DNA from: Thermoanaerobaculia bacterium | Lineage (GTDB): Bacteria > Acidobacteriota > Thermoanaerobaculia > Multivoradales > Multivoraceae | Reading direction: 5' to 3' | DNA length: 64,000 nt | NCBI GenBank assembly: GCA_963664405.1 | Contig: OY761158.1 | Span: forward strand, 1 to 64,000 | Shown: piece by piece, positions 21,304 to 44,430 of the stretch | How positions within the stretch are numbered: position 1 is the first letter of the stretch | How the letters are laid out: each line of letters opens with the position of its first letter | Made by a program: the position numbers and the translations under genes | Notes under the pieces: generated by a model | Told to the model about the DNA's origin: nothing | Database searches by the model: none | What the model saw: only the letters and a program-made list of their open reading frames with translations

Positions 21304-21342
21304 AAAGCGCTCAGCGAGGGCTTATTCAGATCGAGCTATAGC

Positions 21343-21369: not shown

Positions 21370-21373
21370 GCCC

Positions 21374-24309: not shown

Positions 24310-24336
24310 TGTCGTCCTCCGCCGAATAAGACGACA
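24310..24336 (+). repeat. Dyad site, type B
   Basis: TGTCG tcctc CGCC gaataaga CGACA; 4 bp from the kinase stop. Confidence 0.9.
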
Positions 24337-27030: not shown

Positions 27031-27031
27031 G

Positions 27032-28105
27032 ATGTGGACGGAAGTCTACCGCGAGCCAGGATCCGATCAGGGCAAGTCCTCTGATACGTTGGCGAGTACC
27101 TTGGTTCTCCTGAGACAAGAAGACTCCAAGCTGGTCGTCATCGGCGACCTGCACGGAGCTTTCGAAGCCCTGCAGGCGATCCTTCGAGGCGTGGGGCTCG
27201 TCGACGGCAGGCAGCGCTGGGTCGGGGGCACTTCACACCTCGTGCAGATAGGAGACCTGTTCAACAGGTTCGACGGGGGGCGTGCGTGCTTCGAGCATCT
27301 TCTAGGGCTCCGAGAGGAAGCCCGGCGATGTGGGGGTGAGGTGACCCTCCTCCTCGGCAATCACGAAGTCCTGATCGCCGAGGGCAACGAGGCCTATTGC
27401 ACGGCGGGCGAGTATCTCTCCTTCGCGACTTCACGCGAACGCGCTGCTTGGCCTCGACGGGTGAGTCGGGCCTGGTCCCGCTTCTTCCAGAGAGCCACCC
27501 CTCACAAAATCATCCCACCTCTGTCGCCGCGACTCGAAGCCTGGATGGCAGAGAATGCGCCAGGAAAGGAGGAGCTTCGGCGGGCCTTCGGTCCGCGGGG
27601 TCGCATTGGGCGTGAGCTCCGCCGGTTCCCGATCGCCGTTCGCGTCGGAGAGGTCGCCGTTGTTCATGCCGGCTTGCCAGCGCGTTGGGCGCGACGAGGG
27701 GTGGCGGGATTGAACCGGAGCGCGGTGGCGGGGTGGGCTGCTCTCGATGGCAAGGATCTGAGCGGCTTCCGCAGGTCTGCACTCGGGGACCCGAAGGGAC
27801 CGTTGTGGAATCGACGCCTGGCGACCAGCAACGGCAGGGCAGTGGCGAAATCCCTCGAGGCCACTCTGTCTCATCTGGGGGCTAAGCGACTCGTGATTGG
27901 GCACACGCCGACGCGCCAGCTACACCAGGGTGAGCCGGGCAAGATCGTCATGCGCTTCAAGAACCGTCTGGCCTGTACCGACGTCGGACTGAGAGACGGA
28001 GACCCTGCCACTTGGGCGGCTCTGGTAGTGGATCGCTCTCGAGGCTGCGAATGGAAGCCGTCGGGTACTAGAACTCTTTGGCGCAGCCGCCATCGCTTGG
28101 ACTAG
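27032..28105 (+). CDS. Calcineurin-like metallophosphoesterase (Shewanella-like PPP phosphatase type); start uncertain, possibly TTG near 27089
   Basis: GDLHG, GDLFNR, GNHE, HAG, GPLWNR, IGHTP, DVG motifs. Confidence 0.85.
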   Translation: MWTEVYREPGSDQGKSSDTLASTLVLLRQEDSKLVVIGDLHGAFEALQAILRGVGLVDGRQRWVGGTSHLVQIGDLFNRFDGGRACFEHLLGLREEARRCGGEVTLLLGNHEVLIAEGNEAYCTAGEYLSFATSRERAAWPRRVSRAWSRFFQRATPHKIIPPLSPRLEAWMAENAPGKEELRRAFGPRGRIGRELRRFPIAVRVGEVAVVHAGLPARWARRGVAGLNRSAVAGWAALDGKDLSGFRRSALGDPKGPLWNRRLATSNGRAVAKSLEATLSHLGAKRLVIGHTPTRQLHQGEPGKIVMRFKNRLACTDVGLRDGDPATWAALVVDRSRGCEWKPSGTRTLWRSRHRLD

Positions 28106-28160
28106 CACTCTTGGCCACTTGTGGGCGTGCAGCGGAGATCCTATTTTGGGACTCCGAGGC

Positions 28161-28187
28161 TGTCGTCCTTCGCCACCAAATGCGACA
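28161..28187 (+). repeat. Dyad site, type B
   Basis: TGTCG tcctt CGCC accaaatg CGACA; 30 bp from the kinase stop. Confidence 0.9.
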
Positions 28188-28217
28188 GTCTCGTCCGACT
28201 TGCGCCGCGCCGGCTCT

Positions 28218-31200
28218 TCAGACCCTGGCAAGCAGATCTTCCGTGAGGCCGACGTGTCTGGGCATCCCGATCTGCTCGTAAATGGTGCGCGCCTCTTCCA
28301 GGAGCCGATGCGCCCGAGCCGTGTCGTCGGGGGCGCCGCGTTCGAGGAGCATATCCGCGTACCAACGACGGGCGTCCGCCTGCTCACACTTGAAAGGGAT
28401 TCTTTCGGCTTGCTCAAGAGCCTCCCGGAAGTGCCCTTCAGCGCGGTCCCAATCGCGCAGGCAGGAGGCCCCGATGCCGGCAGTCGTCTGCAGGAGCCGC
28501 GGAACGTAAGGCGGGATGAGCGTGCCGGTATCGATGGCTCTCTCGAGCATCGAGTAGAGCTCAGCGGCCCGGTCTCGCTCTCCCAGGATGGCGAGCGCCT
28601 CTGTAGCGCCCAGTAGCACGCACCAGGCGCCGTTGGCGTTCGGGCCGGAGCCTCGAGGAAGGGCGTCTTCCGAGTCATAGAGGGCGAGCACCTCGCTTCG
28701 TCGACCGAGATAGCCGGAGACGAGGAGCAACGAGGACGTGGTGACGCCGTAGAGCGCCCCGACCGGCTCTCCTATCACGGCTTCAGCCAGAAGCTCGTAC
28801 GCAGTCTCCCAGTCGCCTCTCCAGAACGCAGCCAAACCACGCCACCCTCGCGCGAACAGATGCCAAGGCATGTCAGGGAGACCGAATGCTTCCTCGATAA
28901 GCCCGTCGAAGCGATCGATATCGGCGCTCTGCATCCACGCCGACTGAGCTCGAACCATCAGGAATATGTAGTGGTCCCCGTGACTTCCGAGTCGCAGCGC
29001 TGCCTCTTCGAACTCTGACGTGTCCACGTTCGAGCAGCCCATGGCGAGTTTGCCGAACGCGAGGTAGGCACGGGCGTCAATCAGGCTCCTAGGATCGTTG
29101 GTGCCTTTCAGAATCTCGATCGCTTGCTCGCTGTTCGACACCAATTGGGGCATGCGCATCGAGTGCCAATAAATGTATGAACTCATCAGCCTGGCGTGGC
29201 CGAGCAGAGCAGGATCTCCCAGACTCTCAGCCATCGGGATCGCCTCGGCAATCAGCGCATCCCCTTCTTCGAACTGCCGATCGAACGCCAACGCCATCCC
29301 CGCCATGGCCAGGAGGCGGCAGCGCTCCGGCCCCTGCGCTTCGCCCACCAGTCTCAGGCCGCGCTGAGACTCCTCCACCATCTCGGCCGGCTCGGCTTGC
29401 CAGCCGAGTTGAAGTGAGAGATCCCAGGAGATGCGTGCGACGGTCGCCGGATCCGCGCCCTGCTCGCACAATGTCAGAGCCTGTTTCCAATCCGCCAGAG
29501 CCTCCGCAAACAAGCCGAGGCTTTTTCTCGCCCGACCGCGCTTCCAGAGCAGGTCGATCTGCTGTGCACGTTCGGCAGCTCGCAACGACAGGGCAAGGTC
29601 TAACTGCTCCACAGCCTGCTCGAAGCCGCCGGCCGCCAGGGCCTGGTCGGCCGCGAGAGTGAAGAAGTGAAGGGCCCGATCCTCTTCGATCATCGCGCCC
29701 GCCTGATAGAGGTGGTGAGCCATCGCTGCGGCATGCTCGTCGAGAGCTCCGGCGTAGAGAGCCTCCATCGCTTCTGCGACCTGATGGTGGATCTGCTGGC
29801 GGCGAGGCATTGACAGCCCCTGGAGAAGAGTCTGTCGGATCAGCTCGTGCCCAAACTGGTAGCGGGCTTCCCGCGGCGAGGCACTCTTCGTGCGCTCGAT
29901 CAGATGCAGCGCCTCGGCGGCCTCGATGTCCTCCAACAGAAGGTCGGGCTCCGCCTCACAAGCGGCACTCACGAGGCTGTAGGAGAAACTGCGTCCGATC
30001 ACCGCAGCCGTCGCCAGGATCCGGCGACCGTCCTCGGGGAGTCGCTCCAGACGGCGACCGACGACCAGTCGGACTCCCTCGGGGACCTCGAGATCCTCGA
30101 GCGTCAGGCCGTCTCGCCATTGACCCTGGTCGTCGAACAGTCGACCCTCCTCGTCGAGGTGCTCGTACACCTCTTCTACGAAGAAAGGGTTGCCCTCCGT
30201 CTCACCGTGAATGGCAGCGACCAGGTCAGCCGGCGGCTCTCGGGAGCTGAGTGCCGCGAGCATCTCGGACACCGCAGAGAAGGATAGGCGCCCGAGCGAG
30301 ATGCGCTCCACCAGACGCTCGCGCACCAGCTCTCGTAGGCTACTTGCAAGAGGACGCGCGACATCGAGCTCGACATCGCGATACGTGGCGACGATCAGGA
30401 GCGGAAACTGCGCGACTCGTTGAGCCAGATGCTGCAGCAAGAGGAGTGTCGGCTCGTCCGCCCAGTGCAGATCTTCGAGCACCAGGAGCAGCGGTTGAAG
30501 CTCACTCGAGCGCTCGATGAAGTCGCGAAAACAGTCGAAGAGGTAGCCGCGCTCGGCTTCCGGCGGTAGCTCCAACGGCGGCGGCAGGTCGGGGTAGAGG
30601 CGTCTGAGTCCCGGATAGATCTTGGCGATCTCGGAGGCTTCGTCTCCAAGAAGACTGCGTAGTGTTTCCTTGGGAGCCACCCTCGCCGTTGCGTCGAGGA
30701 TCTCGACCCAGGGGCTGAAAGGCCGCACTCCTTCGCCCTCGTAGCAGTTTCCCACCAGAGCCAGGAAGCCCCGCTCGCGGGCCTGCGAGATCGTCTCCCT
30801 CGCGAGCCGCGTCTTCCCGACGCCCGGCTCCCCAGCCAGGGTCACGAGCGCCCCCTGACCGTTCGAGGCCCGCTCCAGTGCCTGGCGTAGCTGCTCCGCT
30901 TCGGACTGCCGGCCCACCATCGGTGTGCGGTACACCGTCGCCGCGGATACCGACGTGGGAATCCGCGCCAACTCGACGCCCCCTGCCGGTGAGCCGTCGC
31001 GAAGCTCCATCAAAGCCTCCAGAAGATCGCTTGCCGACGGGAAGCGCTTCCTCGGGTCCTTCTCGAGACAGCGAGCCAGAATTGGGTCGAGCTCTACCGG
31101 TAGCAGTGTCCCGACAGCGCTCGCCGCTCGCGGAGTGTCGCGAAGGATCGCCGACGCCAAGTCGATGTCGCTGTCGCCCCGGAAGGGGTGCCGTCCTGTC

Positions 31201-31844
31201 GCCATCTCGTAGAGCAGGACGCCCAGGGAGAAAACGTCCGAAGTGGCTTGCACCTGCAGGCCTCGTAGCTGCTCGGGGGACATGTAGGGCACGGTGCCCA
31301 TGACTTTGCCGACCTCGGTCATGCCGGCGGTCGTCGCCTCCGTGCTCGCCGAGTGAGAGCTCGGTGCGACCTCCTTGGCAAGACCGAAATCGAGCACTTT
31401 GACCCATCCAGACTCATTGATCATGACGTTGGCCGGTTTGAGGTCGCGGTGGGTGACGCCCTGCTGATGTGCCGCGGCAAGCGCCTCGACGATCGGAACG
31501 GCAGTCTCGACGAAAGCGTCGGCATCGAAAGGACCTCGACGCAGAGCAGCCTCCAGAGTCCGTCCCTCGATCAGCTCCATCACAAAAAAGCGCAGCTCGC
31601 CTTCGCCCTCGACCGCATGGATCGTGACGATGTGGGGATGGTTGAGCGAAGCCAGCACTCTGGCCTCGCGCTCGAAACGGGCCAGCCGATCAGGATTACG
31701 GACCATCGCCTCGGGCAGAACCTTGATGGCGACTTCTCGACCCAGGTTGGCATCGCGAGCGCGGTACACCTCTCCCATGCCCCCCGCACCGAGCGAGGAG
31801 ACCACTTCGTAGTGGCCGAGGCGAGTGCCAGCTTCTAGCGCCAT
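28218..31844 (-). CDS. Ser/Thr kinase fused to a STAND-like AAA ATPase and TPR-like helical C-terminus
   Basis: [12 protein letters not shown] start at 31844; kinase motifs; GEPGVGKT Walker [12 protein letters not shown] Walker [11 protein letters not shown]. Confidence 0.9.
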
Positions 31845-31902
31845 GACTTGGCGACATCTTACAGTCGCCCGTGGGATCAGCGGCTCAGAGCTCGATCTGT
31901 GC

Positions 31903-31929
31903 TGTCGCACCTCACCCTGAACTGCGACA
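31903..31929 (+). repeat. Dyad site, type A
   Basis: TGTCG cacct CACC ctgaactg CGACA. Confidence 0.9.
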
Positions 31930-31968
31930 GCGCCTTCATTTCGGGGTCTATCGCCTTTCGGCTATACC

Positions 31969-31995
31969 TGTCGCAGTGCGCCACCAAAGGCGACA
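31969..31995 (+). repeat. Dyad site, type B
   Basis: TGTCG cagtg CGCC accaaagg CGACA; 39 bp from site A, 10 bp from the kinase stop. Confidence 0.9.
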
Positions 31996-32005
31996 AGGCC
32001 CGCGC

Positions 32006-34684
32006 TCACAAGCCCCCCTCGGAGAACATCTCGAGCACCTTGGCCCGCCAGTTCTGGACCAAGACTAGACGCTCCTCCTCGTCCTCTGCCGCCTGGATCA
32101 TGAGAAAGCGACCGTCGGGGTGGACGGCGTAGTTCTGGAAGCGCAAGCGCCCTCTCAAGCGCAGGTAATCATCCTCGAAGAGTGGCTCGGGACGGCGGGT
32201 GACGAGATCCTCGCCGGAGATCTCGACCGGAATCGTCATCATGTGGGTCGGGCTGCGGTAGAGGATCTCGCTGCCTTCGGGGGAGAAGCTCGCCTCCTGG
32301 CCGCCGTCGGAGGTGAGCTGACGCGGCTCGCCGGGACCGGGGAAGGGCCGGATCCAGACGTTCTCCTCGCCCTGAACGACCATCGAGTAGGCGATCCAAC
32401 GTCCGGCGGGGTGAAAGCGGGCGGCGCGGACCACGTTCCCCTCGAGGAGGGTCTCGGACTCCCCGCTCTCCCGGTCGAAGACCCAGAGTCCAGGGAAATC
32501 GAAGTTCGTGTAGAGCATGTAGCGCCCGTCCGGGGAAAAATCCAGCGGTGCCTGTTCGTGCTCCGACGGTACGAGACGCTCCGCCGGGGCAGTCCGATCG
32601 TCAGGCTGGATGTAGATCTGAAAGCGCCCCTCGAAGCGATCCGACATGAAGACGATCTCCTGGCCGTCGGGCGGCACCCACATCGCGACACTGTTGCGAT
32701 TCCCCTCCTGGGTCGGGCGGGTCCAGGAGCCGGTCCCGAGGTCGAGCATCCACTGCTCGTAGTCCCCCCTGGCGTTGCGGGCTGGGACCGCGATCCGGCG
32801 CCAGTCCAGGGAGTATCGCGGGAGCGCGAAAGGCTTGCGCTCCGGCGCCACCTCCTCGATGTCCAGGCCGTCGCGACTCACCCAGACCAGGCGGGCCCCA
32901 CTCCGACTCCCGAGAACGTAGAGCAGGTCGCCCGAGTCTGCGAGCGCGAAGCGGCCCACATCGACGCCAATGCCGGGGACCGGGGCCACCCCGGTCTCGA
33001 CCTGACGCGCTGGGCCGAGGAGGTCGGCGGTCTCGGGATCGATCGGCGCCACCCACAGTCCGCCTTCGCGATAGAAGACCAAAAAACCCGGATCGAGATA
33101 GAACGGCTGCGCCCCAGGGACCAGAACCCGTTCCTGGCCAGTCTCGAGGTCCACCGCCCGAACATCGCTCCAGAAGCCCTCCTGACGCTCGTATCTCAAG
33201 TGGGCCAGGGCGACCCGCTCACCAGGCAGAAGCGCGGTGCCGATGCCATGCCCCACCTGCTCGGAGACACCCCCGTCCGCCGGAATCCGCCATAGCTCGA
33301 GAGACGTGGAGCTCCCTATGCCAAGCGAGTAGTAGAGGAAGCCATCGCGCCCCCAGACACCGTCTACGCGGATCCCTTCCACCAGAACGTTGGCGCCTCC
33401 ACCCCCCACGGGAAGCGTCTTCAGACTGCCCCCGGCGTCCACGAAGGCAAGCTGCTGGCCGTCGGGCGAGATGATCGGGAAGAGGGCACCGTCGCTGCCG
33501 GAGATGCGCTCGACGACCAGGGAGTCGAGAGAGCGCCGGTAGAGGCTGGTCTCGGCTTCCTCGCGACGGCGGAAGACCACCATCCGACCGTCCGGAGAGA
33601 GCACGAAGGGCTGATCCGGAGCTGCCTCGAGATCGAGAGCCGTGACCGTCCAGGTGTCGTCCGGCACGGTGCCGTCGGATCCATCGCTTCCATCCCGGAA
33701 CATGACGATGCCGAAGACAAGACCCACCACCAGAGCGATGAGGGCGACTGCTCCGCCGAGGACCGCCGATACCTGACGCCGGGCTGGTGCCGCCTCGCCA
33801 CCGGCTGGCGCGTCGATGTCCGGCTGGTCGAGCACCCCTCGGATCTCGATCCGAACGTCGGCGATGTCGTGAAGGCGCTCCCGCGGATCCTTCGTCAAAC
33901 ACCGTCGGAGCAGTCTCCTGATCGCTCTCGGCGTCGCCGGGGGGAGCTTGCCCCAGTCGATCTCCGCTCTGAGCACCGCTGCCAGCGTGTCGGCGGCATC
34001 GTCGCCGCGGAACGCCCTCGATCCCGTCAGCGTCTCGTAGAGACACACGCCGAAGGCCCAGACGTCGGCCCTTCTATCGACCTCTTTCCCCTTGGCTTGC
34101 TCGGGCGACATGTAGGCCGCCGTGCCGAGAATCTGGCCCCCGAGCGTGGCCGCTTGGGTCAGCGTGGGCGATTCCGAAGGGTCGCTCTCCGGGCCCGTTG
34201 CCGGAGCCATTGCCTTGGCCAGACCGAAGTCAAGAATCTTGACGTTGCCGTCGTCGGTGACCTTGATGTTCGCGGGTTTGAGATCCCGGTGGATCACTCC
34301 CTTCTCGTGCGCTGCCTCAAGCCCCTCGGCGATTTGGAGAAACAGAGGGATCGCCTCGTCGACGGGAATCGGGCCGTGAGCAATCCGATCGGCCAGAGTC
34401 TCGCCCTCGACCAGTTCCATGACCAGGAAGCCCGTGTCACCTTCCCGCTCGAAGGCGTGGAGGCTGGCGATGTTCTTGTGGTTGAGCGAGGCGAGAACTC
34501 GCGCCTCGCGCTCGAAGCGGGATAGACGCTCCGGATTGGCGGAGACCTCTTCGAGTAGAAGCTTGAGCGCGACTTCGCGACCGAGCTTCGTGTCCTTGGC
34601 TCGATACACTTCTCCCATGCCTCCTGCACCTAGCGAGGAGACCACTTCGTAGTGGCCGAGGCGAGTGCCAGCTTCTAGAGCCAT
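32006..34684 (-). CDS. Ser/Thr kinase-TM-TolB-like propeller protein
   Basis: Full set of kinase motifs, TM segment, divergent propeller repeats. Confidence 0.95.
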   Translation of the reverse strand: MALEAGTRLGHYEVVSSLGAGGMGEVYRAKDTKLGREVALKLLLEEVSANPERLSRFEREARVLASLNHKNIASLHAFEREGDTGFLVMELVEGETLADRIAHGPIPVDEAIPLFLQIAEGLEAAHEKGVIHRDLKPANIKVTDDGNVKILDFGLAKAMAPATGPESDPSESPTLTQAATLGGQILGTAAYMSPEQAKGKEVDRRADVWAFGVCLYETLTGSRAFRGDDAADTLAAVLRAEIDWGKLPPATPRAIRRLLRRCLTKDPRERLHDIADVRIEIRGVLDQPDIDAPAGGEAAPARRQVSAVLGGAVALIALVVGLVFGIVMFRDGSDGSDGTVPDDTWTVTALDLEAAPDQPFVLSPDGRMVVFRRREEAETSLYRRSLDSLVVERISGSDGALFPIISPDGQQLAFVDAGGSLKTLPVGGGGANVLVEGIRVDGVWGRDGFLYYSLGIGSSTSLELWRIPADGGVSEQVGHGIGTALLPGERVALAHLRYERQEGFWSDVRAVDLETGQERVLVPGAQPFYLDPGFLVFYREGGLWVAPIDPETADLLGPARQVETGVAPVPGIGVDVGRFALADSGDLLYVLGSRSGARLVWVSRDGLDIEEVAPERKPFALPRYSLDWRRIAVPARNARGDYEQWMLDLGTGSWTRPTQEGNRNSVAMWVPPDGQEIVFMSDRFEGRFQIYIQPDDRTAPAERLVPSEHEQAPLDFSPDGRYMLYTNFDFPGLWVFDRESGESETLLEGNVVRAARFHPAGRWIAYSMVVQGEENVWIRPFPGPGEPRQLTSDGGQEASFSPEGSEILYRSPTHMMTIPVEISGEDLVTRRPEPLFEDDYLRLRGRLRFQNYAVHPDGRFLMIQAAEDEEERLVLVQNWRAKVLEMFSEGGL

Positions 34685-34744
34685 TGACTTGGCGACATCA
34701 TACCCGTCGCCCGGGGGATCAGCGGCTCAGAGCTCGATCTGTGC

Positions 34745-34771
34745 TGTCGCACCTCACCGAATTTCACGACA
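34745..34771 (+). repeat. Dyad site, type A
   Basis: TGTCG cacct CACC gaatttca CGACA. Confidence 0.9.
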
Positions 34772-34949
34772 ACCCCTCGTCGGAGATACTTGAACGAAGG
34801 CCGCTACGCGGCAGTCTCGGAATCCGGATCGAAGACGGACGGATACTCCGGCACGGTGGGATCTAGCTTGAGCTAGTCAAGGTCTAGGAAAGTCTCCATC
34901 CTCTTGGTTTGGCGTCAATGCCGACGCCTGCAACGAGGAGGACCCTGTC

Positions 34950-35810
34950 ATGGGTGCACTGAGAGATCGGATGGAGACGGACATGAAGCTGCACGACTTT
35001 CGACCGGCGACCCAATCGCAGTACTTGCACTGCGTGCGCCGGCTGGCGAAGCACTACGGGCGCTCGCCCGATGAGCTGTGCGAAGAGGAGGTGCGCAGTT
35101 TCCTGCTCTACCTACGCGAGGACCGTGCTTTGAGCTCGGCGAGTATCAGCACCTACACGGCGGCGCTGAAGTTCTTCTACGGGATCACCCTTCACCGCGA
35201 GGAGATGGTGCCCTCGTTAGGCGCTCCGAAGGTGCGCAGGCAGCTTCCGGTCATCCTCTCTGGCACCGAGGTCGCGGCGGTGCTTGGCGCGATCCGCTCG
35301 CACGAGCTGCGTACGTTGGCCACGGTTCTGTACGCTTCGGGCCTGCGCATCAGCGAAGCGTGCGCGCTGGAGGTGTCAGACATCGACTCCGAGCGCATGC
35401 TGATCCATGTGCGCGACGGTAAGGGCGGCCGCGACCGCTTCGCCCTTCTCAGCCCGCAGCTGCTCAAGGTGCTGCGTCGATACTTCCGCAAAGAGCGCCC
35501 CGAGCCGCCCTATCTGTTTCCCGCTCCGCGCTCCGGCAAGACGTTGCGCCCCGACACGGTGCGTAAGAGCCTGCATCGGGCGGCTTTGCGCTGCGGGATT
35601 GTCAAGCGTGTGACCCCACACCTGCTGCGTCACTGCTTTGGCGCCCACATGCTGGAACTGGGCACTGATATCCGTGTGCTGCAGGCGCTGTTGGGTCACC
35701 GCTCGATCCGCACGACCCAGCTGTACGTACAGGTCTCCACCCAGCTGATCGCGCGCACCCCAAGCCCGTTGGACCTGCTCGGCACTCCCGCGGGCAAGGT
35801 CCTCGGATAA
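34950..35810 (+). CDS. Tyrosine recombinase/integrase
   Basis: YASGLRISE, GKGGRDR, HLLRH, LGH, TTQLY catalytic motifs. Confidence 0.95.
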   Translation: MGALRDRMETDMKLHDFRPATQSQYLHCVRRLAKHYGRSPDELCEEEVRSFLLYLREDRALSSASISTYTAALKFFYGITLHREEMVPSLGAPKVRRQLPVILSGTEVAAVLGAIRSHELRTLATVLYASGLRISEACALEVSDIDSERMLIHVRDGKGGRDRFALLSPQLLKVLRRYFRKERPEPPYLFPAPRSGKTLRPDTVRKSLHRAALRCGIVKRVTPHLLRHCFGAHMLELGTDIRVLQALLGHRSIRTTQLYVQVSTQLIARTPSPLDLLGTPAGKVLG

Positions 35811-35828
35811 CCGCGCGCTACAGCAACC

Positions 35829-37055
35829 GTGCACCCCCAGCAGGGGTGCGCTCGGCAGCTCGACCGCAAAGCGGGTCGGTCTCGCTATGACCTGGGCGAG
35901 ATCTTCCGGGCGCACATCGACGCCTTCCGTGACCGCCACTTCTTGAGTCCTTTACAGGCTCAGGTGGTGCGGGCGATCTGTGCCTGCCGCACCGCGCAGC
36001 TGGGCGGGCATCTGGACGTGTGTCGGGACTGCGGCTATAGGCGCCCTGCGTATAACTCATGCCGGAATCGTCACTGCCCCAAGTGCCAGGCGCTGGATCA
36101 GCACCGTTGGCTCGAGCGGCGCCTGTCTCGCATTCTCCCGGTCGGCTACTTTCACGTCGTCTTCACCCTGCCGGGGGAGCTCGCCTCAGTGGGTCTGCGC
36201 AACCGCCGCCTTGTCTACGAGCTGCTCTTCCGAGCCGCGGCGGAAACGCTTCTGACCCTCGGCAAGGATCCCCAACGGCTCGGAGCCCTGCTCGGCATCA
36301 CGATGGTGCTGCACACCTGGACTCGGGACCTGCGTTTCCACCCCCATATCCACGCCATCGTCACCGGCGGAGGACTCAGCCTCGACGGACGGCGGTGGCT
36401 CTCGACGGGCGAGAAGTATCTGTTTGCCGTCAAGCTTCTGGGGAGGCTGTACCGCGGTAAGTTTCTCGGCCACCTGGCCCGTGCCTACAAAGACGGACAG
36501 CTCGACCTGCCACGAGATCTGGCCGAGGACGGTGGCTTCGATCGCCTGCTGTCGAAGCTCTACGCCAAGGACTTCATCGTCTACGCCAAGCGTCCCTTCG
36601 CCGGTGCGCAGCAGGTCTTCTCCTACCTGGGCCGCTATACCCATCGAGTCGCACTGTCCAACCACAGAATCCTCAACGTCACGGAGCAGGCCATCACCCT
36701 CGCCACGCGCGATGGCAAGACCGTGACGCTCTCTCCCGAGGAGCTCATCCGCCACTTTGTGCTGCACGTCCTGCCCCGACGATTCCAAAAGATTCGCCAC
36801 TATGGACTCATGGCCTCGGCCAACGTCCACTCTCGCCTCGAGCGAGCCCGCGCTCTGCTCGAGTCCACCGCCACAGCGACCCAGGCCGAAACCTCCCACC
36901 CCATCCCCATCGAGTCGGAAACCACAAACGAGCTCCTCCAACGCCTCACCGGCATCGACCTCGCGATCTGTCCCGCCTGCCAAGGTCCCCGCCTCCAACG
37001 TTTCCCCCTCGACCCTCCTGCCTACGCCCGGCCTCCACCGGTGGCGGCCGCGTGA
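35829..37055 (+). CDS. IS91-family transposase
   Basis: NSCRNRHCPKCQ zinc domain, HPHIH HUH motif, YLGRY. Confidence 0.95.
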   Translation: MHPQQGCARQLDRKAGRSRYDLGEIFRAHIDAFRDRHFLSPLQAQVVRAICACRTAQLGGHLDVCRDCGYRRPAYNSCRNRHCPKCQALDQHRWLERRLSRILPVGYFHVVFTLPGELASVGLRNRRLVYELLFRAAAETLLTLGKDPQRLGALLGITMVLHTWTRDLRFHPHIHAIVTGGGLSLDGRRWLSTGEKYLFAVKLLGRLYRGKFLGHLARAYKDGQLDLPRDLAEDGGFDRLLSKLYAKDFIVYAKRPFAGAQQVFSYLGRYTHRVALSNHRILNVTEQAITLATRDGKTVTLSPEELIRHFVLHVLPRRFQKIRHYGLMASANVHSRLERARALLESTATATQAETSHPIPIESETTNELLQRLTGIDLAICPACQGPRLQRFPLDPPAYARPPPVAAA

Positions 37056-37409
37056 TCCCACGCCTTTCTCTTCCCGCGCTCCCGGTCCCGCCGCGGACAA
37101 GGCGGAGGTGTGCCCGCGGTGGCTCCGAACCCAAAATCGAGACGCCGGTGGACCTCCCAGGGGCCGCGCAGGCGCCTGACCGCAACCCAGTGCACCTCTG
37201 GAACTACCTCACAACCCTCGACCTGGGGCGCGTCGCGCGCAGCACAGCCTGCCAACGAGGCTGATAACCCCATACACAACCGCTCGTCTGGCGGCCTCCG
37301 CTCAAGCCAGGTCTAGCAGAATCCCGCTCGGGTAGATCCGCGCGACGACGAACCTCCTGCCTCGCGGGACTCTGCGAGATCCTTCTCCTTATCTGCTTTC
37401 GGCTATACG

Positions 37410-37436
37410 TGTCGTCCTCCGCCAGATAAGGCGACA
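37410..37436 (+). repeat. Dyad site, type B
   Basis: TGTCG tcctc CGCC agataagg CGACA preceded by the conserved TTTCGGCTATAC flank. Confidence 0.9.
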
Positions 37437-37462: not shown

Positions 37463-38440
37463 TCAATAGTCCTCGCCAGAGGGAGAGAGCCTCGATGCTT
37501 CCGCCTGTCCGCCACGCAGTATGGTCGGCATGCTGTAGTTGCCCTCGTGACAGGCGAACTCGAAGATCGGTACATCATGGCGCGTCATCGAAAACTCGCC
37601 GGTCCAAGCCTGGGTGTACAACTCGTCATCCTCGACGGTGAATCGGTAGAGCAATTCGCGGTCGGAGACCCGCGTGAAACGCTCGGTTAGCCTAGTCTTC
37701 GGGCCGATCAGGAGCGCTCGACCGAAGACTTCCCGAGCTGGATCTTCGCCGCGGAAGTGAGTCGTTTCCACCACGAGAGTGTCGCCCTCCCAGCGGCCCC
37801 TCGAGTAGCCGTCAAGGCTCCGCAGCGAGTCAGACGGTGGCGCACCTTGGAGGTGGATCAAACGAAGCCCGACAGCGTCCTCGGTCAGGATCACGAAGGT
37901 GTCGCGAGATTGGAAGATCTGGTGAGGTACGAAGAGAGGAGCCGCACGAATGGGCGGAGATCCCCAACCCTCCAGGCAGCGCTCGGCGAGCGGCCGCTGA
38001 TCGGCGCTGTCGAACATGTGCTCCCTGCGCCGCTGCGCCCAGTCAACGAGTTCCAACCCGACCTCGCTCAGGGGCATCTTCCCGTCCTCTGGCTCGACGA
38101 TCACCGACGTGCGGTACTCGCCTAGGACCTGTGCGAGGTTCACAATGCCGTGGTTCTCAATATCGGAATCGATGTTGTCGGGCAGGCCGTTCAAGAAGAC
38201 TGCCGCGATCGCTTTCGCGTCCTCCGGGGTCGCGATCAAGTTCTCGACGCCCTCGGGCCTTTCGAGCGTGGTCGCGAAGTCGGGTGCCCAGACACCCTGG
38301 AAGTCGGGTTGGTCGTAGGCCGTCCTGGGAACTACGTAGGGGTTCGAAGACTGGGCGACAGTTCCAGCAGGGGCACCCACGAGGACCAGGAGGGAGAGAG
38401 TCGCTCGGAGATAGATCAGGTCCCTACTTGATTCAGCCAT
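37463..38440 (-). CDS. Secreted hypothetical protein (PRTxxxxPD ... GRWEGDTLVVETT ... FACHEGNY family)
   Basis: Signal peptide and conserved motifs; homolog of the fragment at 3904. Confidence 0.8.
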   Translation of the reverse strand: MAESSRDLIYLRATLSLLVLVGAPAGTVAQSSNPYVVPRTAYDQPDFQGVWAPDFATTLERPEGVENLIATPEDAKAIAAVFLNGLPDNIDSDIENHGIVNLAQVLGEYRTSVIVEPEDGKMPLSEVGLELVDWAQRRREHMFDSADQRPLAERCLEGWGSPPIRAAPLFVPHQIFQSRDTFVILTEDAVGLRLIHLQGAPPSDSLRSLDGYSRGRWEGDTLVVETTHFRGEDPAREVFGRALLIGPKTRLTERFTRVSDRELLYRFTVEDDELYTQAWTGEFSMTRHDVPIFEFACHEGNYSMPTILRGGQAEASRLSPSGEDY

Positions 38441-38460
38441 TATCTGCCTTCGGTCATCCG

Positions 38461-38487
38461 TGTCGTCATTCGCCAGATAAGACGACA
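38461..38487 (+). repeat. Dyad site, type B
   Basis: TGTCG tcatt CGCC agataaga CGACA; 4 bp from the kinase stop. Confidence 0.9.
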
Positions 38488-38491
38488 TCCC

Positions 38492-41194
38492 TCAGTCGGT
38501 GGGGACGAGGCGCTTCAGCTCCTCGAACCAGTTCTCGATGATCGTGATCTGCGGCCTCACCTGTCCGGTTTCGCCGGTGGAGTCGGCCCCCAGCCCAGCC
38601 GCTTTGAGGAGCAGGAATCTGTCCTTCTCGGAGTCGTAATCCCAGGACACGCCAGGACCATTGACCACATCCAGATACCCTCCGTCGATCAGGACCTCCG
38701 GATCCTCATTCCAGAACGTGGGCCCTGTCTCGACCAAAGCGACCATGACCGCGCCGTCACTGTTTCGGCGAAAGAATAACTCCCGGCCGTCGTCCGACCA
38801 GCGAGGCGCGTGCCCACCGGCTGTCGAGACCTGACTGATGTCGCCGAGTCCGGGGTAGCGCTCCACAAACACCTCCGACTGGCCGTTCCTGTCCGACGAA
38901 TACGCGATCCATCCGCCATCGGGAGAGATGGCCGGATGGAGTTCGTCGGCCTCGGTCTCCAGCAGCGGTTCCCACTCGCCACTCTCCATCGCCATCGTCC
39001 CCACATTGGCTCCCTTGTCGACGCTGGTGTAACCGAAGATCAGCGTGGCCCCGTCATCGGCCCAGCTGTAAGGCATCAGAAAAGTGACTGTCTCGCCCTG
39101 CATCAGATGTTCGACCTGGCCGGACCCATCGGCCGCTATCTGGAAGAAGCCAAGCTGCCCGTCCACCCGCGTGGATGCGAACACGATCTCGCGGTCGCCT
39201 GGAGCATAGATCGGCACGTTTTCCATATCGGGGCTGTTGGTCAGGTTGGTGCGTGTCGGGGGATTTCGGTTCAGGTCCGAGGTCCATACATCCTGGTTCC
39301 CTGAGTTCGCGTCCCGGACGCTCATCGCCAGCCGCGTTCCGTCGGAGGACAGACGTGTCCACCAATAGTTGCCCGGTTCGAGACCCACTTCGTCCTCGTT
39401 CCCGTGCCGGTCCACCCAGACCAGCTCCCCACGCAGACCGGTCACGCCTGCACTGGCGTATATCAAAGTCCCATCCTCGGAGATCCCATAGTTGGCACTC
39501 GAAGAAACGACCGCCCTCTGGAGACCCAGCTCGAGCGACACGGCAGTACCGGTCGTTTCGAGCGTGCCCGGATCGAATCCAACCGCGAACAGGGCATCGT
39601 CCACCACATAGACGAGGTGCCCGGTCGGGATGTACCGGGCGTCACTACCGCCCCGCAGAACTGTTCGCTCTCCAGGGGAGTCGAGAGACTCGACAACGAT
39701 CTGCGCACTGGCCCAGCTGCCCGGTGCGCCGACCGTAAACAGGACGCTTCGACCATTGGGCAGGAGCTGGGGGCTGTCCAACGCCTCACCGGCTGAGGGC
39801 TCGATGATCCGTTCAGGGGACCCGCCGCTGGCGGCAACGCTATAGATTCCGTCGGGCGCTGCAAACAAAATCCTGTCGTCCTCACCCCAGGTGAGACCCC
39901 ACGGGCGAGGGGTTTGACCCACTCTGGAGGGACTCCCTCCTGTGATGGGGATCGTTTCGATCTGGGCGTTCCGCCAGAAGCCCACAGCCTGGCTGTCGGG
40001 CGAGAAGAACGGGCTCCCGCTATCTTCGGTTCGGGGCAGGGGCCGCGCATCCAGCTCGTTCATGGTCCGTACGTAGAGTCCATCGGTGGTCGCGAATGCG
40101 AAACGGCTTCCATCTCGTGCGATCGAGAGTGTGGAATAGAGTCCGTTCACGAAGTTCGTCCCTTCGGGCAGCTCGTAGACCCATCGGCGGACTGGGCGGG
40201 GATCGCCGGGTTTGAACATCCATGCGCCCACGCCGACGAGGGCGGCCACGAGCGCAATCGCGGCGACCCACGGCAACTTCTTCTGTGGAACTGTCTGGAC
40301 GATCGCGGGCGCCGGCTGTGCCAGCACGCCGCCGGGGTCGGCGAGAACCTTCTGGATATCCACCCTGACATCCCCGATATCGCGATATCGGTCCCGCACG
40401 TCCTTCTCGAGACAACGCTCGAGCACTTCTCGTAAACGCTCATGTAGCTGCGGAGGAAGGCCCATCCACTCCGGCTCCCCGCGTATGACGGCGGCGAGGA
40501 TATCGGTCACGTCGCTACCCGGAAACGCGGGGCGGCCGGAGAGCATCTCGTAGAGCACGCAGCCGAACGCCCAGACATCGGTACGCTTGTCGATGTCGCG
40601 CCCTCGGGTCTGTTCCGGGGACATGTAAGCGGCCGTCCCCAGGATCACCCCCTTCTGGGTTGCCTGCATGCTCAAGGTCGGCGAGTTCGACAGGTTGACG
40701 TCACTCTCGTCCCCAGAAAACGCCTTCGCCAGTCCGAAGTCGAGCACCTTGACCTTACCGTCGTCGGTCACTTTGATGTTCGCGGGCTTGAGGTCGCGAT
40801 GAATGACGCCTTTCTCGTGAGCAGCCTCTAGACCCTCGGCAATCTGGAGAAAGAGCGGCAGCGCCTCATCGACGGGTATCGCCCCTCGCTTGATCCGGTC
40901 GGCCAACGTCTCGCCCTCGACCAGCTCCATGACCAGGAAGCTGGTGTCGCCGTCCTTTTCGAAGCCGTGGAGCGTGGCGATGTTGTTGTGGTTCAGCGAG
41001 GCAAGGAGGCGGGCCTCGCGCTCGAAGCGGGCGAGCCGTTCAGGGTCGGTTGAGACCTCTTCCAAGAGGAGCTTGACCGCCACCTCACGACCGAGCTTCG
41101 TGTCGCGGGCACGGTAGACCTCTCCCATGCCTCCTGCACCGAGGGAGGAGACCACTTCATAGTGACCGAGCTTCGTACCTGCTTCTAGTGTCAT
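38492..41194 (-). CDS. Ser/Thr kinase-TM-TolB-like propeller protein
   Basis: Full set of kinase motifs; C-terminal NWFEELKRLVPTD. Confidence 0.95.
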   Translation of the reverse strand: MTLEAGTKLGHYEVVSSLGAGGMGEVYRARDTKLGREVAVKLLLEEVSTDPERLARFEREARLLASLNHNNIATLHGFEKDGDTSFLVMELVEGETLADRIKRGAIPVDEALPLFLQIAEGLEAAHEKGVIHRDLKPANIKVTDDGKVKVLDFGLAKAFSGDESDVNLSNSPTLSMQATQKGVILGTAAYMSPEQTRGRDIDKRTDVWAFGCVLYEMLSGRPAFPGSDVTDILAAVIRGEPEWMGLPPQLHERLREVLERCLEKDVRDRYRDIGDVRVDIQKVLADPGGVLAQPAPAIVQTVPQKKLPWVAAIALVAALVGVGAWMFKPGDPRPVRRWVYELPEGTNFVNGLYSTLSIARDGSRFAFATTDGLYVRTMNELDARPLPRTEDSGSPFFSPDSQAVGFWRNAQIETIPITGGSPSRVGQTPRPWGLTWGEDDRILFAAPDGIYSVAASGGSPERIIEPSAGEALDSPQLLPNGRSVLFTVGAPGSWASAQIVVESLDSPGERTVLRGGSDARYIPTGHLVYVVDDALFAVGFDPGTLETTGTAVSLELGLQRAVVSSSANYGISEDGTLIYASAGVTGLRGELVWVDRHGNEDEVGLEPGNYWWTRLSSDGTRLAMSVRDANSGNQDVWTSDLNRNPPTRTNLTNSPDMENVPIYAPGDREIVFASTRVDGQLGFFQIAADGSGQVEHLMQGETVTFLMPYSWADDGATLIFGYTSVDKGANVGTMAMESGEWEPLLETEADELHPAISPDGGWIAYSSDRNGQSEVFVERYPGLGDISQVSTAGGHAPRWSDDGRELFFRRNSDGAVMVALVETGPTFWNEDPEVLIDGGYLDVVNGPGVSWDYDSEKDRFLLLKAAGLGADSTGETGQVRPQITIIENWFEELKRLVPTD

Positions 41195-41242: not shown

Positions 41243-41269
41243 TGTCGTCCTCCACCACGAAAGACGACA
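41243..41269 (+). repeat. Dyad site, type A
   Basis: TGTCG tcctc CACC acgaaaga CGACA; a variant TGTCG-N17-CGACA without the CRCC core follows at 41336-41362. Confidence 0.9.
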
Positions 41270-41710
41270 CGCAGGCCCGCAAGTCCCCGTATTTGCTGGA
41301 TTCTCTTGGTGCCCCAAGGGCGAAAGGCGACAGTTTGTCGCGATATGTGCGTGGGTGCGACACCTAAGCCCCGAAACACAGAAGGATCTCGCAGAGTCCC
41401 GCGAGGCAGGAGGTTCGTCGTCGCGCGGATCTACCCGAGCGGGATTCTGCTAGACCTGGCTTGAGCGGAGGCCGCCAGACGAGCGGTTGTGTATGGGGTT
41501 ATCAGCCTCGTTGGCAGGCTGTGCTGCGCGCGACGCGCCCCAGGTCGAGGGTTGTGAGGTAGTTCCAGAGGTGCACTGGGTTGCGGTCAGGCGCCTGCGC
41601 GGCCCCTGGGAGGTCCACCGGCGTCTCGATTTTGGGTTCGGAGCCACCGCGGGCACACCTCCGCCTTGTCCGCGGCGGGACCGGGAGCGCGGGAAGAGAA
41701 AGGCGCGCGA

Positions 41711-42937: not shown

Positions 42938-42955
42938 GGTTGCTGTAGCGCGCGG

Positions 42956-43816: not shown

Positions 43817-44430
43817 GACAGGGTCCTCCTCGTTGAAGGCGTCGGCAGTGACGCCAAACCAAGAGGATGGAGACTTTCCTAGACCTTGACTAGCTCAAGC
43901 TAGATCCCACCGTGCCGGAGTATCCGTCCGTCTTCGATCCGGATTCCGAAACTGCCGCGCAGCGGCCTTCGTTCAAAAGTGCAAAAACACCCGCTCGAAG
44001 CGTTCTGGGACGAGGGTCCCGGCTCATCTGCGCGGCAAGGATCTTGACCGCCAACCTCCCGTTTCAGGCTGGTGTCAGGCGGGTGTCTGGGCCTTGTTAC
44101 AGGTTCCCCTCTATCGCACTCGCCTAGCGAGACGATCTCGTTGGGGCCGGGGCGGATGGCCTGGCTCTAGGGCCACGGTAGGGTCGTTTCTGCTCCCCGC
44201 TGACCGCCGGGTCAGATCCGTGAAAAAGGTGCTCGGTCCGGAGAGAGGTTCCATAGATAGAGACCGATAGGAGTCCCGGAACCGGATAGCCCCCCCGGGG
44301 TGCAATTTTGGGTGCATCGCGTGGCAACGAACGCCCATCTTCGCCAACCATCGCCAACGAGCGGGGCATCCCCAACTCCCCCACTTTACTGTGGTTGAGC
44401 GTTGAGCTCTGTTGATTCTCATTGGACCAG

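Follow-up and report, generated by a model that had tools for sequence, protein, structure and literature searches.

Dyad sites of 27 bp at the junctions of gene units in the arrays of an Acidobacteriota genome: candidate points of cassette exchange

Integrons carry attC sites, which are imperfect palindromes of 57-141 bp that fold as single strands and have conserved core boxes; their cassettes are promoterless and depend on one common promoter. In Xer sites, such as the chromosomal dif with its XerC arm, 6-bp spacer and XerD arm, it is the inner bases that are conserved. The res and crossover dyads of small serine recombinases are 26-28 bp long; a helix-turn-helix reads their outer bases, the inner part is AT-rich, and the crossover is short and central. 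Two-subsite res regions measure about 90 bp. In Acinetobacter plasmids, the pdif (XerC/XerD) modules are described in passages of PMC9771954 as bounded by dyad sites of about 28 bp and as recognised through identity between replicons that ends in the sites; by the title of its reference 152, these sites are dif-like and lie inversely oriented on either side of a module. According to a passage of a bioRxiv preprint (10.1101/542381), IntI has its nearest homologues, which do not have its insertion, among the recombinases carried by IS91 and IS3 elements.

In this paper we describe a 27-bp dyad, TGTCG-N5-CRCC-N8-CGACA, in a stretch of 64,000 nucleotides (the window, by which we mean that whole stretch) from contig OY761158.1 of a Thermoanaerobaculia bacterium. 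The window contains 13 copies of the dyad and the 6.78-Mb genome 88, whereas each of the 30 relatives searched has 0-5 chance-like matches. Its outer part, TGTCG-N17-CGACA, has 14 exact matches in the window where 0.08 are expected (0/100 shuffles got to 14), and 13 of these 14 have CRCC at positions 11-14. An initial annotation of this DNA had counted 13 sites and sorted their left and right arms into families; the count holds, and the families match the window sites as printed. All 13 read on the + strand, and the genes run opposite. Fourteen of the 27 bases are invariant and the inner arms are variable, positions 5 and 21 being Y and R independently of each other and the right arm being A/T-rich at positions 17-18, with 85 distinct 27-mers among the 88 genomic sites. 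By core, the sites divide into 33 CACC and 55 CGCC. Literature search listings showed no work on sites or arrays of this kind in Acidobacteria.

Seven arrays take in 80 of the 88 sites, each array with a single orientation that is independent of replication direction. As in integron-like co-oriented arrays, the CGCC sites stand at gene ends: an ORF of at least 100 aa ends within 70 nt of 42 of the 55, at a median distance of 10 nt. The CACC sites lie 48-60 nt upstream of the ATG of Ser/Thr kinase genes of about 900 aa. The two types alternate with a gene-less linker unit between them, 66 bp from core to core; 15 of the 20 CACC-to-CGCC pairs are spaced exactly 66 bp, and the reverse order was never found. 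A linker or leader stands to the right of 28/33 CACC sites and of 0/55 CGCC sites. The features of the window are as follows.

17592-17618, + strand: CACC site, 27 bp, upstream of a truncated kinase N-terminus (158-aa ORF, 17054-17530)
17619-17657, + strand: 39-bp linker between CACC and CGCC site, 66 bp core to core
17658-17684, + strand: CGCC site, 27 bp, 1 nt past the methyltransferase stop codon
17686-18465, - strand: methyltransferase cassette gene
18506-18532, + strand: CGCC site, 27 bp, 8 nt after the K2 stop and 40 nt before the methyltransferase start
18541-21228, - strand: kinase cassette K2, 895 aa, Pkinase and PD40 repeats
21277-21303, + strand: CACC site, 27 bp, 48 nt upstream of the K2 ATG
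21304-21342, + strand: 39-bp linker
21343-21369, + strand: CGCC site, 27 bp, 4 nt after the homology-defined K3 3' end
21373-24248, - strand: kinase cassette K3; its 901-aa ORF stops at 21543, paralogue homology runs on to 21373
24310-24336, + strand: CGCC site without linker, at once the K4 3' site (4 nt past the K4 stop) and the site upstream of K3 (61 nt from its ATG)
24341-27154, - strand: kinase cassette K4, ORF of 937 aa as listed, kinase domain from residue 62
28161-28187, + strand: CGCC site, 27 bp, 30 nt past the stop codon of K5; the 3.8-kb duplicated unit has its left border here
28218-31844, - strand: kinase cassette K5, 1208 aa, Pkinase, AAA_16 and TPR
31768-31916, + strand: block near-identical to 34608-34758 (about 25 first codons, promoter-like region, left half-site), ending at the CACC core
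31903-31929, + strand: CACC site, 27 bp, 58 nt upstream of the K5 ATG
31930-31968, + strand: 39-bp linker, of the family of the linker at 755776-755814
31969-31995, + strand: CGCC site, 27 bp, 10 nt past the stop codon of K6; the 3.8-kb duplicated unit has its right border here
32006-34684, - strand: kinase cassette K6, 892 aa, Pkinase and PD40
34745-34771, + strand: CACC site, 27 bp, 60 nt upstream of the K6 ATG, 27-mer identical to that at 5466788
34789-37391, + strand: IS91-like element, splitting the linker between sites 34745 and 37410
37410-37436, + strand: CGCC site, 27 bp, 26 nt past the stop codon of the 341-aa gene
37463-38488, - strand: 341-aa cassette gene, without Pfam match
38461-38487, + strand: CGCC site, 27 bp, 4 nt after the K7 stop
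38492-41194, - strand: kinase cassette K7, 900 aa, Pkinase and PD40
41243-41269, + strand: CACC site, 27 bp, 48 nt upstream of the K7 ATG, the array's first site, followed by the leader
41270-41362, + strand: array leader, a 66-nt spacer ending in a half-site, then a CRCC-less dyad at 41336-41362
41380-43976, - strand: IS91-like element, second, inverted copy, 17 nt from the leader dyad

K3 is probably frameshifted, as paralogue homology outlasts its ORF, and the true start of K4 probably lies further in than the listed one. Upstream of K4 there is no site, and the next feature is a + strand metallophosphoesterase ORF (27011-28105). On the other strand the leader dyad resembles an inverted, degenerate site. 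The leader is also found at 617787, 747662 and 6523212, in diverged copies at 873849, 3944777, 4411856 and 5004409, and in another genome, G008. Beyond six array leaders the flanking genes, among them IS66, a DDE transposase, PMT_2 and a cyclase, have no gene in common and include no recombinase. The cassettes are large, about 2.7-3.8 kb, and belong mainly to one family of Ser/Thr kinases, of which this genome has some twenty near-full-length sensor kinases. The cargo is nevertheless functionally unrelated, comprising kinases, the methyltransferase, MFS, DUF1326, a 564-aa sigma-70 and a Na/H exchanger, as well as Zincin_1, DUF3604, cupin, DUF3047, amidohydrolase and PLD genes. In 16 of 20 long ORFs a promoter-like hexamer, TANNNT, starts 17-18 nt before the ATG; from site edge to hexamer the distance is 30 or 42-43 nt, values about one helical turn apart.

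The proposal that strands are exchanged at the core arose from the regions upstream of K5 (31845-31916) and K6 (34685-34758), which had been reported as nearly identical up to CACC and divergent at once thereafter. Both halves of that observation are borne out by alignment. From start codon to core end 73 of 78 columns are identical, with five differences of which two are 1-base indels; past the core the right arm agrees at 0/8 positions, CGACA at 5/5 and the next 30 columns at 8/30. On the coding side of the same pair the first 50 columns are 48/50 identical, and 50 columns deeper the figure is 36/50. The annotation had also held that arms are combined differently from site to site, and had suggested looking for incongruence between left and right halves. 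Run as a Mantel comparison over the 88 sites, this check found the halves uncorrelated across the core, that is, assorting independently (r=0.065, p=0.17 for CACC, n=33; r=0.020, p=0.30 for CGCC, n=55), and left arm against right arm gave r=-0.003 and -0.011. Neighbouring blocks on one side of a site gave r=0.44-0.65, and an arm against its own flank 0.28/0.37 for CACC and 0.12/0.06 for CGCC.

Breakpoints were located as the ends of paralogue matches of at least 60 bp and at least 90% identity across 174 kb of arrays, which yielded 631 distinct ends. Sixty-one of them fall at site positions 10-16, where about 2 would be expected from roughly 0.33% of the sequence, an enrichment of some 30-fold over uniform; the ends pile up on the core genome-wide. 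They are one-sided, as matches coming from the left stop at positions 13-16 (45 ends) and those from the right begin at 10 (14 ends). The outer 5-bp blocks hold fewer ends (23 and 3) than the core, and there are secondary clusters, one of 23 ends at site positions 4-6 and one of 16 ends that lie 13-18 nt to the left of a site. Since alignment ends snap to invariant blocks, the break is resolved to the core interval, positions 10-13 counted from 0. With exchange "at or just after CRCC", as originally worded, the breaks agree as far as the core interval, the exact point being finer than this resolution; a point at or left of core base 2 would fit at least as well, because the A or G there follows the right-hand partner (28/33 against 0/55, above).

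Whole units that were recently duplicated are also bounded by cores. A unit of 3827 bp is present at 28158-31984 and at 755760-759586 with 99.7% identity; at one border the left arms are alike in 1/5 bases and at the other the right arms diverge after two bases. An 860-bp stretch of 98.4% identity likewise spans core to core, and one 66-bp linker exists in four copies with a single-base difference, in DNA that is unalignable on both sides. Ordinary homologous recombination is disfavoured by these borders, as it should join inside long identical stretches and not at a 4-bp block between variable arms. One contig (run X8, record 17, depth 2.3), from a related strain, keeps the left flank of site 28161 up to site position 15 and is fused there to a different kinase 3' end, 85% like K2. 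Short read contigs, which may come from the source sample, bridge sites 17592, 17658, 18506, 21277, 21343, 24310 and 28161 as assembled. The many apparent joints of 21-27 nt are paralogue cross-matches.

Beyond this genome, a search with a single pattern found the CACC-39-CGCC composite in 3 other MAGs and on 29 metagenome contigs; the 166-bp intergenic composite had no match in the plasmid collection. In G008, which is of another genus, the leader and a CACC site precede an unrelated gene, and 25/27 of the site's bases are as at 873756. Among 26 composites from other organisms the arms track neither flank (r=0.03, 0.05, -0.08, 0.01), so the finding that an arm travels with its flank applies to the recent paralogues of this genome. 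Loci L047 and L071 part inside a linker, away from the core; at L061 a 99%-identical block begins 3 nt past the site and ends within coding sequence, and at L052 the junction comes after the fourth codon of a kinase.

Recombinases were sought in several ways, including a genome-wide map of serine and tyrosine recombinases. The IntI model TIGR02249 gave 29 matches in the whole genome, none above the 265-bit cut-off and the best at 122 bits. Twenty recombinase queries from G000 (6 serine, 14 tyrosine) had no match in 32 outside loci, about 90 kb, and the tyrosine recombinases by the array ends are mutually unrelated. A candidate at L073, also by an array end, was a truncated catalytic domain and was rejected. 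A small serine recombinase gene (6509415-6510101) stands about 160 bp from a site, beside one of the seven arrays (A7). Its three paralogues have no such dyad nearby, it is absent from the 30 relatives at E<=1e-25, and of the other four site-bearing genomes only G031 has a homologue, 34% identical.

The IS91-like element in the window encodes a 286-aa tyrosine recombinase (34950-35810) and a 408-aa Y2 transposase (35829-37055). The latter is an IS91 Y2 HUH transposase with a zinc-binding N-terminus (PF04986, 1.7e-52; PF14319, 3.3e-31), and the sequences that match it on plasmids bear the annotation IS91 family transposase. Of the six copies inspected, five are full and one is partial. Three interrupt a linker at one common place, with 17-23 nt to a CGCC site; another is separated by 17 nt from a leader dyad, and yet another is inside a CACC site, two bases past the core. 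The element's recombinases are the genome's second-best matches to the integron-integrase model, the better scorer being a paralogue of 43% identity that two more IS91-like copies carry (6274868, 6759098). Both types match the model on either side of the IntI insertion, and the relatives found for the IS91-linked recombinase are distant, at 26-35% identity.

Compared with described systems, the arrays recall integrons and CALINs (integron cassette arrays that have no integrase) in their one-directional rows of single-gene units of unrelated function, in sites close to stop codons, in sites that are hybrids of two neighbours with identity breaking inside them, and in a leader at one array end. 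They differ in having no integron integrase, sites of only 27 bp and no sign of a folded single strand, as well as in the promoter-like hexamers that 16 of 20 long ORFs have of their own, the two alternating site types with their 66-bp gene-less linker, and large cassettes drawn mostly from one gene family. Discrete gene modules bounded by dyads are shared with pdif, whose recombinase is encoded elsewhere according to PMC9771954, as the one here would be; unlike in pdif, all sites of an array point one way. A candidate dif, found at 6765428 where cumulative GC skew peaks, is unlike the 27-bp sites in sequence and layout, and the conserved outer bases of the sites would set them apart from Xer sites, which conserve the inner ones. 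The 93-bp composite is comparable in size to a two-subsite res, and the A/T-rich positions 17-18 of the right arm would suit one. The odd length, the off-centre core, a serine recombinase by only one of seven arrays and paralogues of it without dyads do not. As for the identical central dinucleotide of res sites, the breaks map to the invariant CRCC of an odd-length dyad, at a resolution coarser than a dinucleotide.

We lean slightly towards reading the 27-bp dyads as the junctions of gene cassettes that are shuffled by site-specific recombination in the core. Each cassette would consist of one gene with its own promoter-like region and would meet its neighbour, or the 66-bp linker unit, inside a site. 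A protein would read the outer five bases of each side and the four-base core on double-stranded DNA, and a conservative site-specific recombinase would cut and rejoin within the invariant CRCC, with sequence left of the core moving with the left unit and sequence right of it with the right unit. As directly oriented sites of the same array or of different arrays exchanged again and again, cassettes would be duplicated, moved and re-paired, the outcome being seven one-directional arrays of mostly Ser/Thr kinase genes. That an enzyme drives the exchange, which enzyme it would be, which phosphodiester bonds it would cut and whether it may act at present are points that we infer from sequence. 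Several observations count against the cassette reading: no recombinase was linked to the sites in the searches made, and some breaks lie outside the core (the secondary clusters and L047, L071, L061 and L052). The evidence is comparative throughout, and neither an excised circle nor a deletion joint came to light in the assembled contigs. Fourteen invariant bases together with variable inner arms would be unusual for the core site of a tyrosine recombinase, and a dyad of odd length fits a central 2-bp crossover poorly. The fixed distances to the promoter-like hexamers suggest regulation, which may coexist with recombination at the same sites.

The dyads had initially been taken for recombination sites rather than operators; the recombination evidence stands, and the opposition between the two is weakened by the fixed hexamer spacing in 16/20 ORFs. 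A purely regulatory explanation, which we regard as unlikely though of some weight, has a dimeric transcription factor bind the dyads, as operators or upstream activating sites, and so control the near-leaderless promoters of a regulon. The mosaic would then have arisen among tandem paralogues by ordinary homologous recombination, gene conversion and unequal crossing-over, and the core would be a mere meeting point of two differently evolving modules. Symmetric half-site preferences without covariation agree with this, as do half-sites two helical turns apart at 30 or 42-43 nt upstream of TANNNT, the leader and CACC site before an unrelated gene in G008, and the absence of a descent signal in the arms of the outside composites. 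Activator sites would not be expected, however, to track upstream stop codons and array ends or to border duplicated units, and here CGCC sites follow the upstream gene's stop codon closely (median 10 nt) and site 28161 closes a cassette that faces a convergent gene. Homologous recombination should moreover keep left and right arms linked, yet their r is about 0 while arms are linked to their own flanks; the four-copy 66-bp linker and the 3.8-kb unit stop at a 4-bp block between variable arms, and the outer 5-bp blocks, although longer microhomologies, take fewer ends (23 and 3, to the core's 61). The one-sided ends of identity anchored at the core could also be produced if a site-specific nicking or cutting enzyme broke the core and repair from paralogous templates started conversion tracts there, which would account for the varying length of high identity on the gene side (it fades, for example, in the coding region at about 31768). 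Cores bound units on both sides, a better fit to two exchanges than to tracts of random length, and no candidate nuclease was found near the arrays, so that we give this only a slight chance.

Two further explanations assign the arrays to elements or structures of known kinds. The IS91-like elements might have built them, with adjacent genes swept along in one-ended transposition by the rolling-circle Y2 enzyme, or through their integron-like tyrosine recombinase acting on the dyads. Copies lodged in linkers, by the leader dyad and inside a CACC site speak for this, as do the recombinase's second rank in the genome against the integron-integrase model, the nearness of IS91 and IS3 recombinases to IntI noted in the text of bioRxiv 10.1101/542381, and the restriction of large arrays to 1 of 31 genomes, namely this one, with five element copies. 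It is rendered improbable by G002, which has a 56%-identical recombinase yet one chance-like site, by searches that found no such recombinase in G008, G031, G032 and G033, which have true sites, or in the 32 outside loci, by the element's own ends, which sit in the linker and not at cores, and by the small size of the break cluster 13-18 nt left of the sites (16 ends). Scarcely credible is a role as RNA or single-stranded DNA hairpins, whether REP/BIME-like, folded as attC or acting as processing or stabilizing stem-loops. The dyads do stand at gene 3' ends, as short intergenic dyads in many copies per genome like REP/BIME, and some window sites give 9-11-bp stems on the mRNA-sense strand with z down to -5.7. 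The z-scores that are negative for several sites derive from dinucleotide shuffling, which destroys the invariant dyad and is the wrong control. Pairing at 5-21 to 9-17 stays at the chance level on either strand, G-U pairs allowed, and at that of arm-swapped controls, with no covariation, and the natural arm combinations have no folding advantage over arm-swapped chimeras (z between -0.77 and +1.22); these two tests led us to reject hairpins. An Rfam scan of 17000-42000 at E<=5 gave two unrelated matches with E>2, far under gathering scores. The 13 weak PF01797 matches to Y1-type transposase genes in the genome all lie outside the arrays, and array orientation does not track replication direction. 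Unlike REP/BIME-RAYT systems, the sites are co-oriented with genes and confined to arrays. We conclude that the dyad is DNA read by a protein in double-stranded form, not a hairpin, as judged from these folding comparisons; the independent Y and R at positions 5 and 21 are what two half-sites bound by protein should show.

Returning to cassette exchange, we tentatively extend it, with more doubt than confidence, to an integron-independent platform of Acidobacteriota that would capture, copy and re-pair whole promoter-bearing genes at a 27-bp exchange site in double-stranded DNA and that an IntI-like tyrosine recombinase, borne on the IS91-like elements in the linkers, may drive. That equally tentative picture includes seven arrays grown by amplification of one sensor Ser/Thr kinase family and the alternation of CACC and CGCC sites with a 66-bp linker. 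If true, it would be a second, independent route by which bacteria assemble and reorder gene rows at short sites, differing from integrons in its site, in doing without a folded single strand and in having cassettes that bear promoters, in a phylum that is environmentally abundant and poorly studied. The 27-bp site would be a handle for finding such cassettes in metagenomes, and the system would explain how some twenty near-full-length sensor kinases of one family came to be in one genome.

The window, the opening 64 kb of a single 6.78-Mb contig (C1 of genome G000), carries on its minus strand a row of Ser/Thr protein kinase genes. By Pfam, K2, K4, K6 and K7 encode proteins of about 900 aa that contain PD40 beta-propeller repeats, and K5 encodes a kinase with AAA_16 and TPR domains. 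Interspersed among the kinases are a SAM methyltransferase gene and a gene for a 341-aa protein with no Pfam match. The features referred to here are as follows.

18541-21228, minus strand, kinase cassette K2
21373-24248, minus strand, kinase cassette K3; its 901-aa ORF stops at 21543 and homology with the 3' ends of paralogues runs to 21373, which probably reflects a frameshift in the gene or an error in the sequence
28218-31844, minus strand, kinase cassette K5
34789-37391, plus strand, IS91-like element encoding an integron-like tyrosine recombinase
38492-41194, minus strand, kinase cassette K7
41380-43976, minus strand, second IS91-like copy, inverted and 99.1% identical to the first, encoding the same type of recombinase
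46366-48309, element of about 1.95 kb with at least 15 genome copies at 99.8% identity or more
46353-46444 and 46845-46936, 92-nt direct repeat at one end of the 1.95-kb element; its two copies are 92% identical and 492 nt apart

Between the window genes the dyad TGTCG-N17-CGACA has 14 exact matches against 0.08 expected, a number that none of 100 shuffles reached. In 13 of them CRCC occupies dyad positions 11-14 (1-based; positions 10-13 when counted from 0, as below), always on the plus strand and thus antisense to the genes. Genome-wide there are 88 such 27-bp sites, 80 of which lie in seven arrays, with one orientation per array, and eight of which are single or paired. Thirty relatives have 0-5 dyad matches each, mostly GC-rich chance matches; three in G008, from one genus among them, look genuine.

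The two site types occupy different places. CGCC sites (n = 55) follow stop codons, an ORF of at least 100 aa ending within 70 nt in 42 of 55 (median 10 nt), whereas CACC sites (n = 33) lie upstream of genes, with 48-60 nt from site end to the ATG of long ORFs. Read on the CRCC strand, CACC precedes CGCC in all 20 two-site intergenes, and in 15 of these the two sites start exactly 66 bp apart, so that the composite measures 93 bp, 39 bp of it linker. A linker or leader stands to the right of 28/33 CACC sites and of 0/55 CGCC sites, so the A or G of the core goes with whatever stands to the right of the site; to the left, either a promoter region or a linker can be found. Each array begins with a leader, in which a CACC site is followed by a 66-nt spacer with a half-site at its end and then by a dyad without CRCC which, on the opposite strand, resembles an inverted, degenerate site. 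A diverged leader copy in G008 precedes an unrelated, broken AMP-ligase-like gene.

Segments of more than 150 bp between sites number 54, of which 19 contain a sense ORF of at least 880 aa (five checked by Pfam, the others taken as kinases from length and tblastn), and many segments are decayed. Non-kinase cassettes carry MFS, DUF1326, Zincin_1, DUF3604, cupin, DUF3047, amidohydrolase and PLD genes, a Na/H exchanger with TrkA domains, and a 564-aa sigma-70 gene. The last (G000:C1:771143-772837) is a full-length paralogue with regions 1.1 to 4 and forms a cassette within kinase array 3. Multi-copy elements are also found close to a site or within an array: another copy of the 1.95-kb element is 86 nt from site 602260, and array 4 contains (at 3947761-3949773) a different element, of 2.0 kb and present in about 30 copies.

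A folded hairpin was considered as the form in which the dyad is read, and was rejected. Apart from the five invariant outer pairs, the arms show no covariation: at pairs 5-21 to 9-17 the Watson-Crick fraction equals the shuffled expectation, and counting G-U pairs as well, on one strand or the other, gives the same result. In folding, real sites have no advantage over chimeras whose right halves were swapped (z from -0.77 to +1.22); the strongly negative dinucleotide-shuffle z-scores of some window sites merely reflect the invariant dyad. Rfam gave no match in the scanned array region (window 17000-42000). Since position 5 (C or T) and position 21 (G or A) vary independently of each other, the dyad is best taken as two half-sites, putatively read by protein and about two helical turns apart, to which CRCC, as a third conserved block, would give polarity.

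The initial annotation had proposed that halves of these sites reassort, with identity breaking exactly at CRCC. Its key pair, the regions upstream of two different kinases (31845-31916 and 34685-34758), bears this out: between the start codon and the last base of the core 73 of 78 columns are the same, and divergence follows directly (right arm 0/8 identical, CGACA 5/5, next 30 columns 8/30). On the gene side, high identity covers roughly the first 25 codons (48/50 columns), beyond which it falls to paralogue level (36/50). Left and right relatedness were compared separately, as the initial annotation had suggested, here in the form of Mantel correlations of pairwise identity. Neighbouring blocks on one side are strongly correlated (r = 0.44-0.65, p < 0.001), and each arm correlates with its own flank (0.28 and 0.37 for CACC, 0.12 and 0.06 for CGCC sites). 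The two arms, four bases apart, give r = -0.003 and -0.011, and left and right halves r = 0.065 and 0.020 (not significant), so that the halves are uncorrelated, as had been predicted.

When the seven arrays were compared with each other by blastn (matches of at least 60 bp at 90% identity, 631 distinct ends), 61 ends fell at site positions 10-16, against about 2 expected. Left-side matches end at 13-16 (45 ends) and right-side matches begin at 10 (14 ends), with two smaller clusters, one of 23 ends at site positions 4-6 and one of 16 ends 13-18 nt to the left of a site. The pile-up on the core thus stands; the exact point is placed only within positions 10-13, because the core is invariant and ends snap to its borders. 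Recent events have the same limits. A 3827-bp stretch containing K5 and its linker, common to arrays 1 and 3 at 99.7% identity, is bordered by CGCC cores, with left arms that differ at 4/5 bases at one border and right arms that part after two bases at the other. An 860-bp stretch (98.4% identity) also runs core to core, and a 66-bp core-to-core linker exists in four copies with a single difference and unalignable sequence on both sides. A related strain has a low-depth contig in which the sequence left of site 28161, continuing to site position 15, is joined to the end of a different kinase gene.

We lean, with moderate confidence, towards reading the dyads as junctions of gene cassettes shuffled by site-specific recombination in the core, and an exact, protein-guided exchange there is the simplest account of these patterns. 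Homologous exchange requires tens of identical bases. Such stretches are present in the promoter and N-terminal block, about 95% identical among many copies, so joints would be made there and the left arm would stay linked to the right arm and linker; the opposite is observed. Microhomology would favour the longer outer blocks, yet the core takes most ends (CGACA 3, TGTCG with two further bases 23, core 61). Ordinary recombination is thus a poor fit.

The main rival, which we regard as unlikely, is an operator combined with ordinary recombination. It draws on the fixed distance of 30 or 42-43 nt between sites and a TANNNT hexamer, itself starting 17-18 nt ahead of the start codon in 16 of 20 long ORFs across the genome, a layout that suggests near-leaderless promoters and mRNAs with an upstream protein site; against it, the Mantel result is the reverse of the linkage that homologous exchange predicts. 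The variants TAGAAT, TAAGAT and TATGAT precede K2, K3, K6 and K7 (for example 21241-21246 and 34697-34702), upstream of which no Shine-Dalgarno-like stretch was noticed by eye. Given these fixed distances, a regulatory role may coexist with recombination or, in the rival account, replace it. Recombination sites are therefore the best-supported explanation, as initially proposed, but the accompanying "rather than operators" goes further than the data.

Outside this genome, a search with a single pattern for the two-site composite found it in 29 metagenome contigs and in three more MAGs, of which two carry the label Acidobacteriota/Acidobacteria and one Myxococcota; kinase genes are present at 16 of these 32 loci. 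The site-bearing MAGs have only 3-4 sites each, and their fragmentary assemblies may collapse arrays. The outside data lend the recombination reading no further weight: across 26 outside composites neither flank correlates with the arms, so the arm pattern is seen among recent paralogues of G000 alone. Some differences between genomes have their joints elsewhere: within a linker (L047 against L071), just outside a site and within coding sequence (L061), and after the fourth codon of a kinase gene (L052). In L052, a metagenome contig (L052:1-330 against G000:C1:4950700-4950760), the composite, a promoter-like region and the first four kinase codons are fused before an alpha/beta-hydrolase gene, whose G000 counterpart, 93.5% identical, has no site; cassette cargo appears to have been replaced through an illegitimate join.

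None of the recombinases looked at can be assigned to the sites. No integron integrase was found in the G000 genome, where the best partial matches to the integron-integrase model are the tyrosine recombinases of IS91-like elements. Part of a preprint (bioRxiv 10.1101/542381) places IS91-type recombinases, which do not have the insertion of IntI, beside that integrase as its closest homologues. The association of these elements with the sites is striking: among the six copies examined across the genome (five full, one partial), three lie at the identical point of the 39-bp linker, one 17 nt from a leader dyad and one inside a CACC site. The element ends are not at cores. A 56%-identical homologue of the recombinase is present in a site-less relative, and no close homologue was found in the four other site-bearing genomes or the 32 outside loci. 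In the first window copy the recombinase gene is at 34950-35810. The two window copies bracket K7 and the 341-aa gene in the manner of a composite transposon. Other candidates do no better: the gene for a small serine recombinase (6509415-6510101) is 160 bp away from the final site at just one array. A XerC/D-like pair is encoded near 3565746 and 5350062, and the candidate dif site does not resemble the dyads. If the chromosome is circular, this dif-like 28-mer (G000:C1:6765428-6765455) is located, across the joined contig ends, about 15 kb ahead of the window; because it sits at the cumulative GC-skew maximum, the window is probably about 30-55 kb from the replication terminus.

Like integron arrays and pdif modules, the arrays consist of genes bounded by short sites where identity between copies breaks, but by the features that define these two systems they belong to neither. 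IntI is absent, no attC-like folding is seen, and the sites are not dif-like. They are all repeated directly, whereas the sites on either side of a pdif module are inverted, as described in passages of PMC9771954 and in the title of its reference 152. The cassettes have their own promoter-like element. The dyad layout, in which the outer bases are conserved, the inner part varies and is partly AT-rich, and a short centre is again conserved, is reminiscent of small serine recombinase crossover sites, and the 93-bp composite of two-subsite res regions. If cassette shuffling by recombination in the core is the true reading, the arrays would represent a new variant of site-bounded gene-cassette systems.
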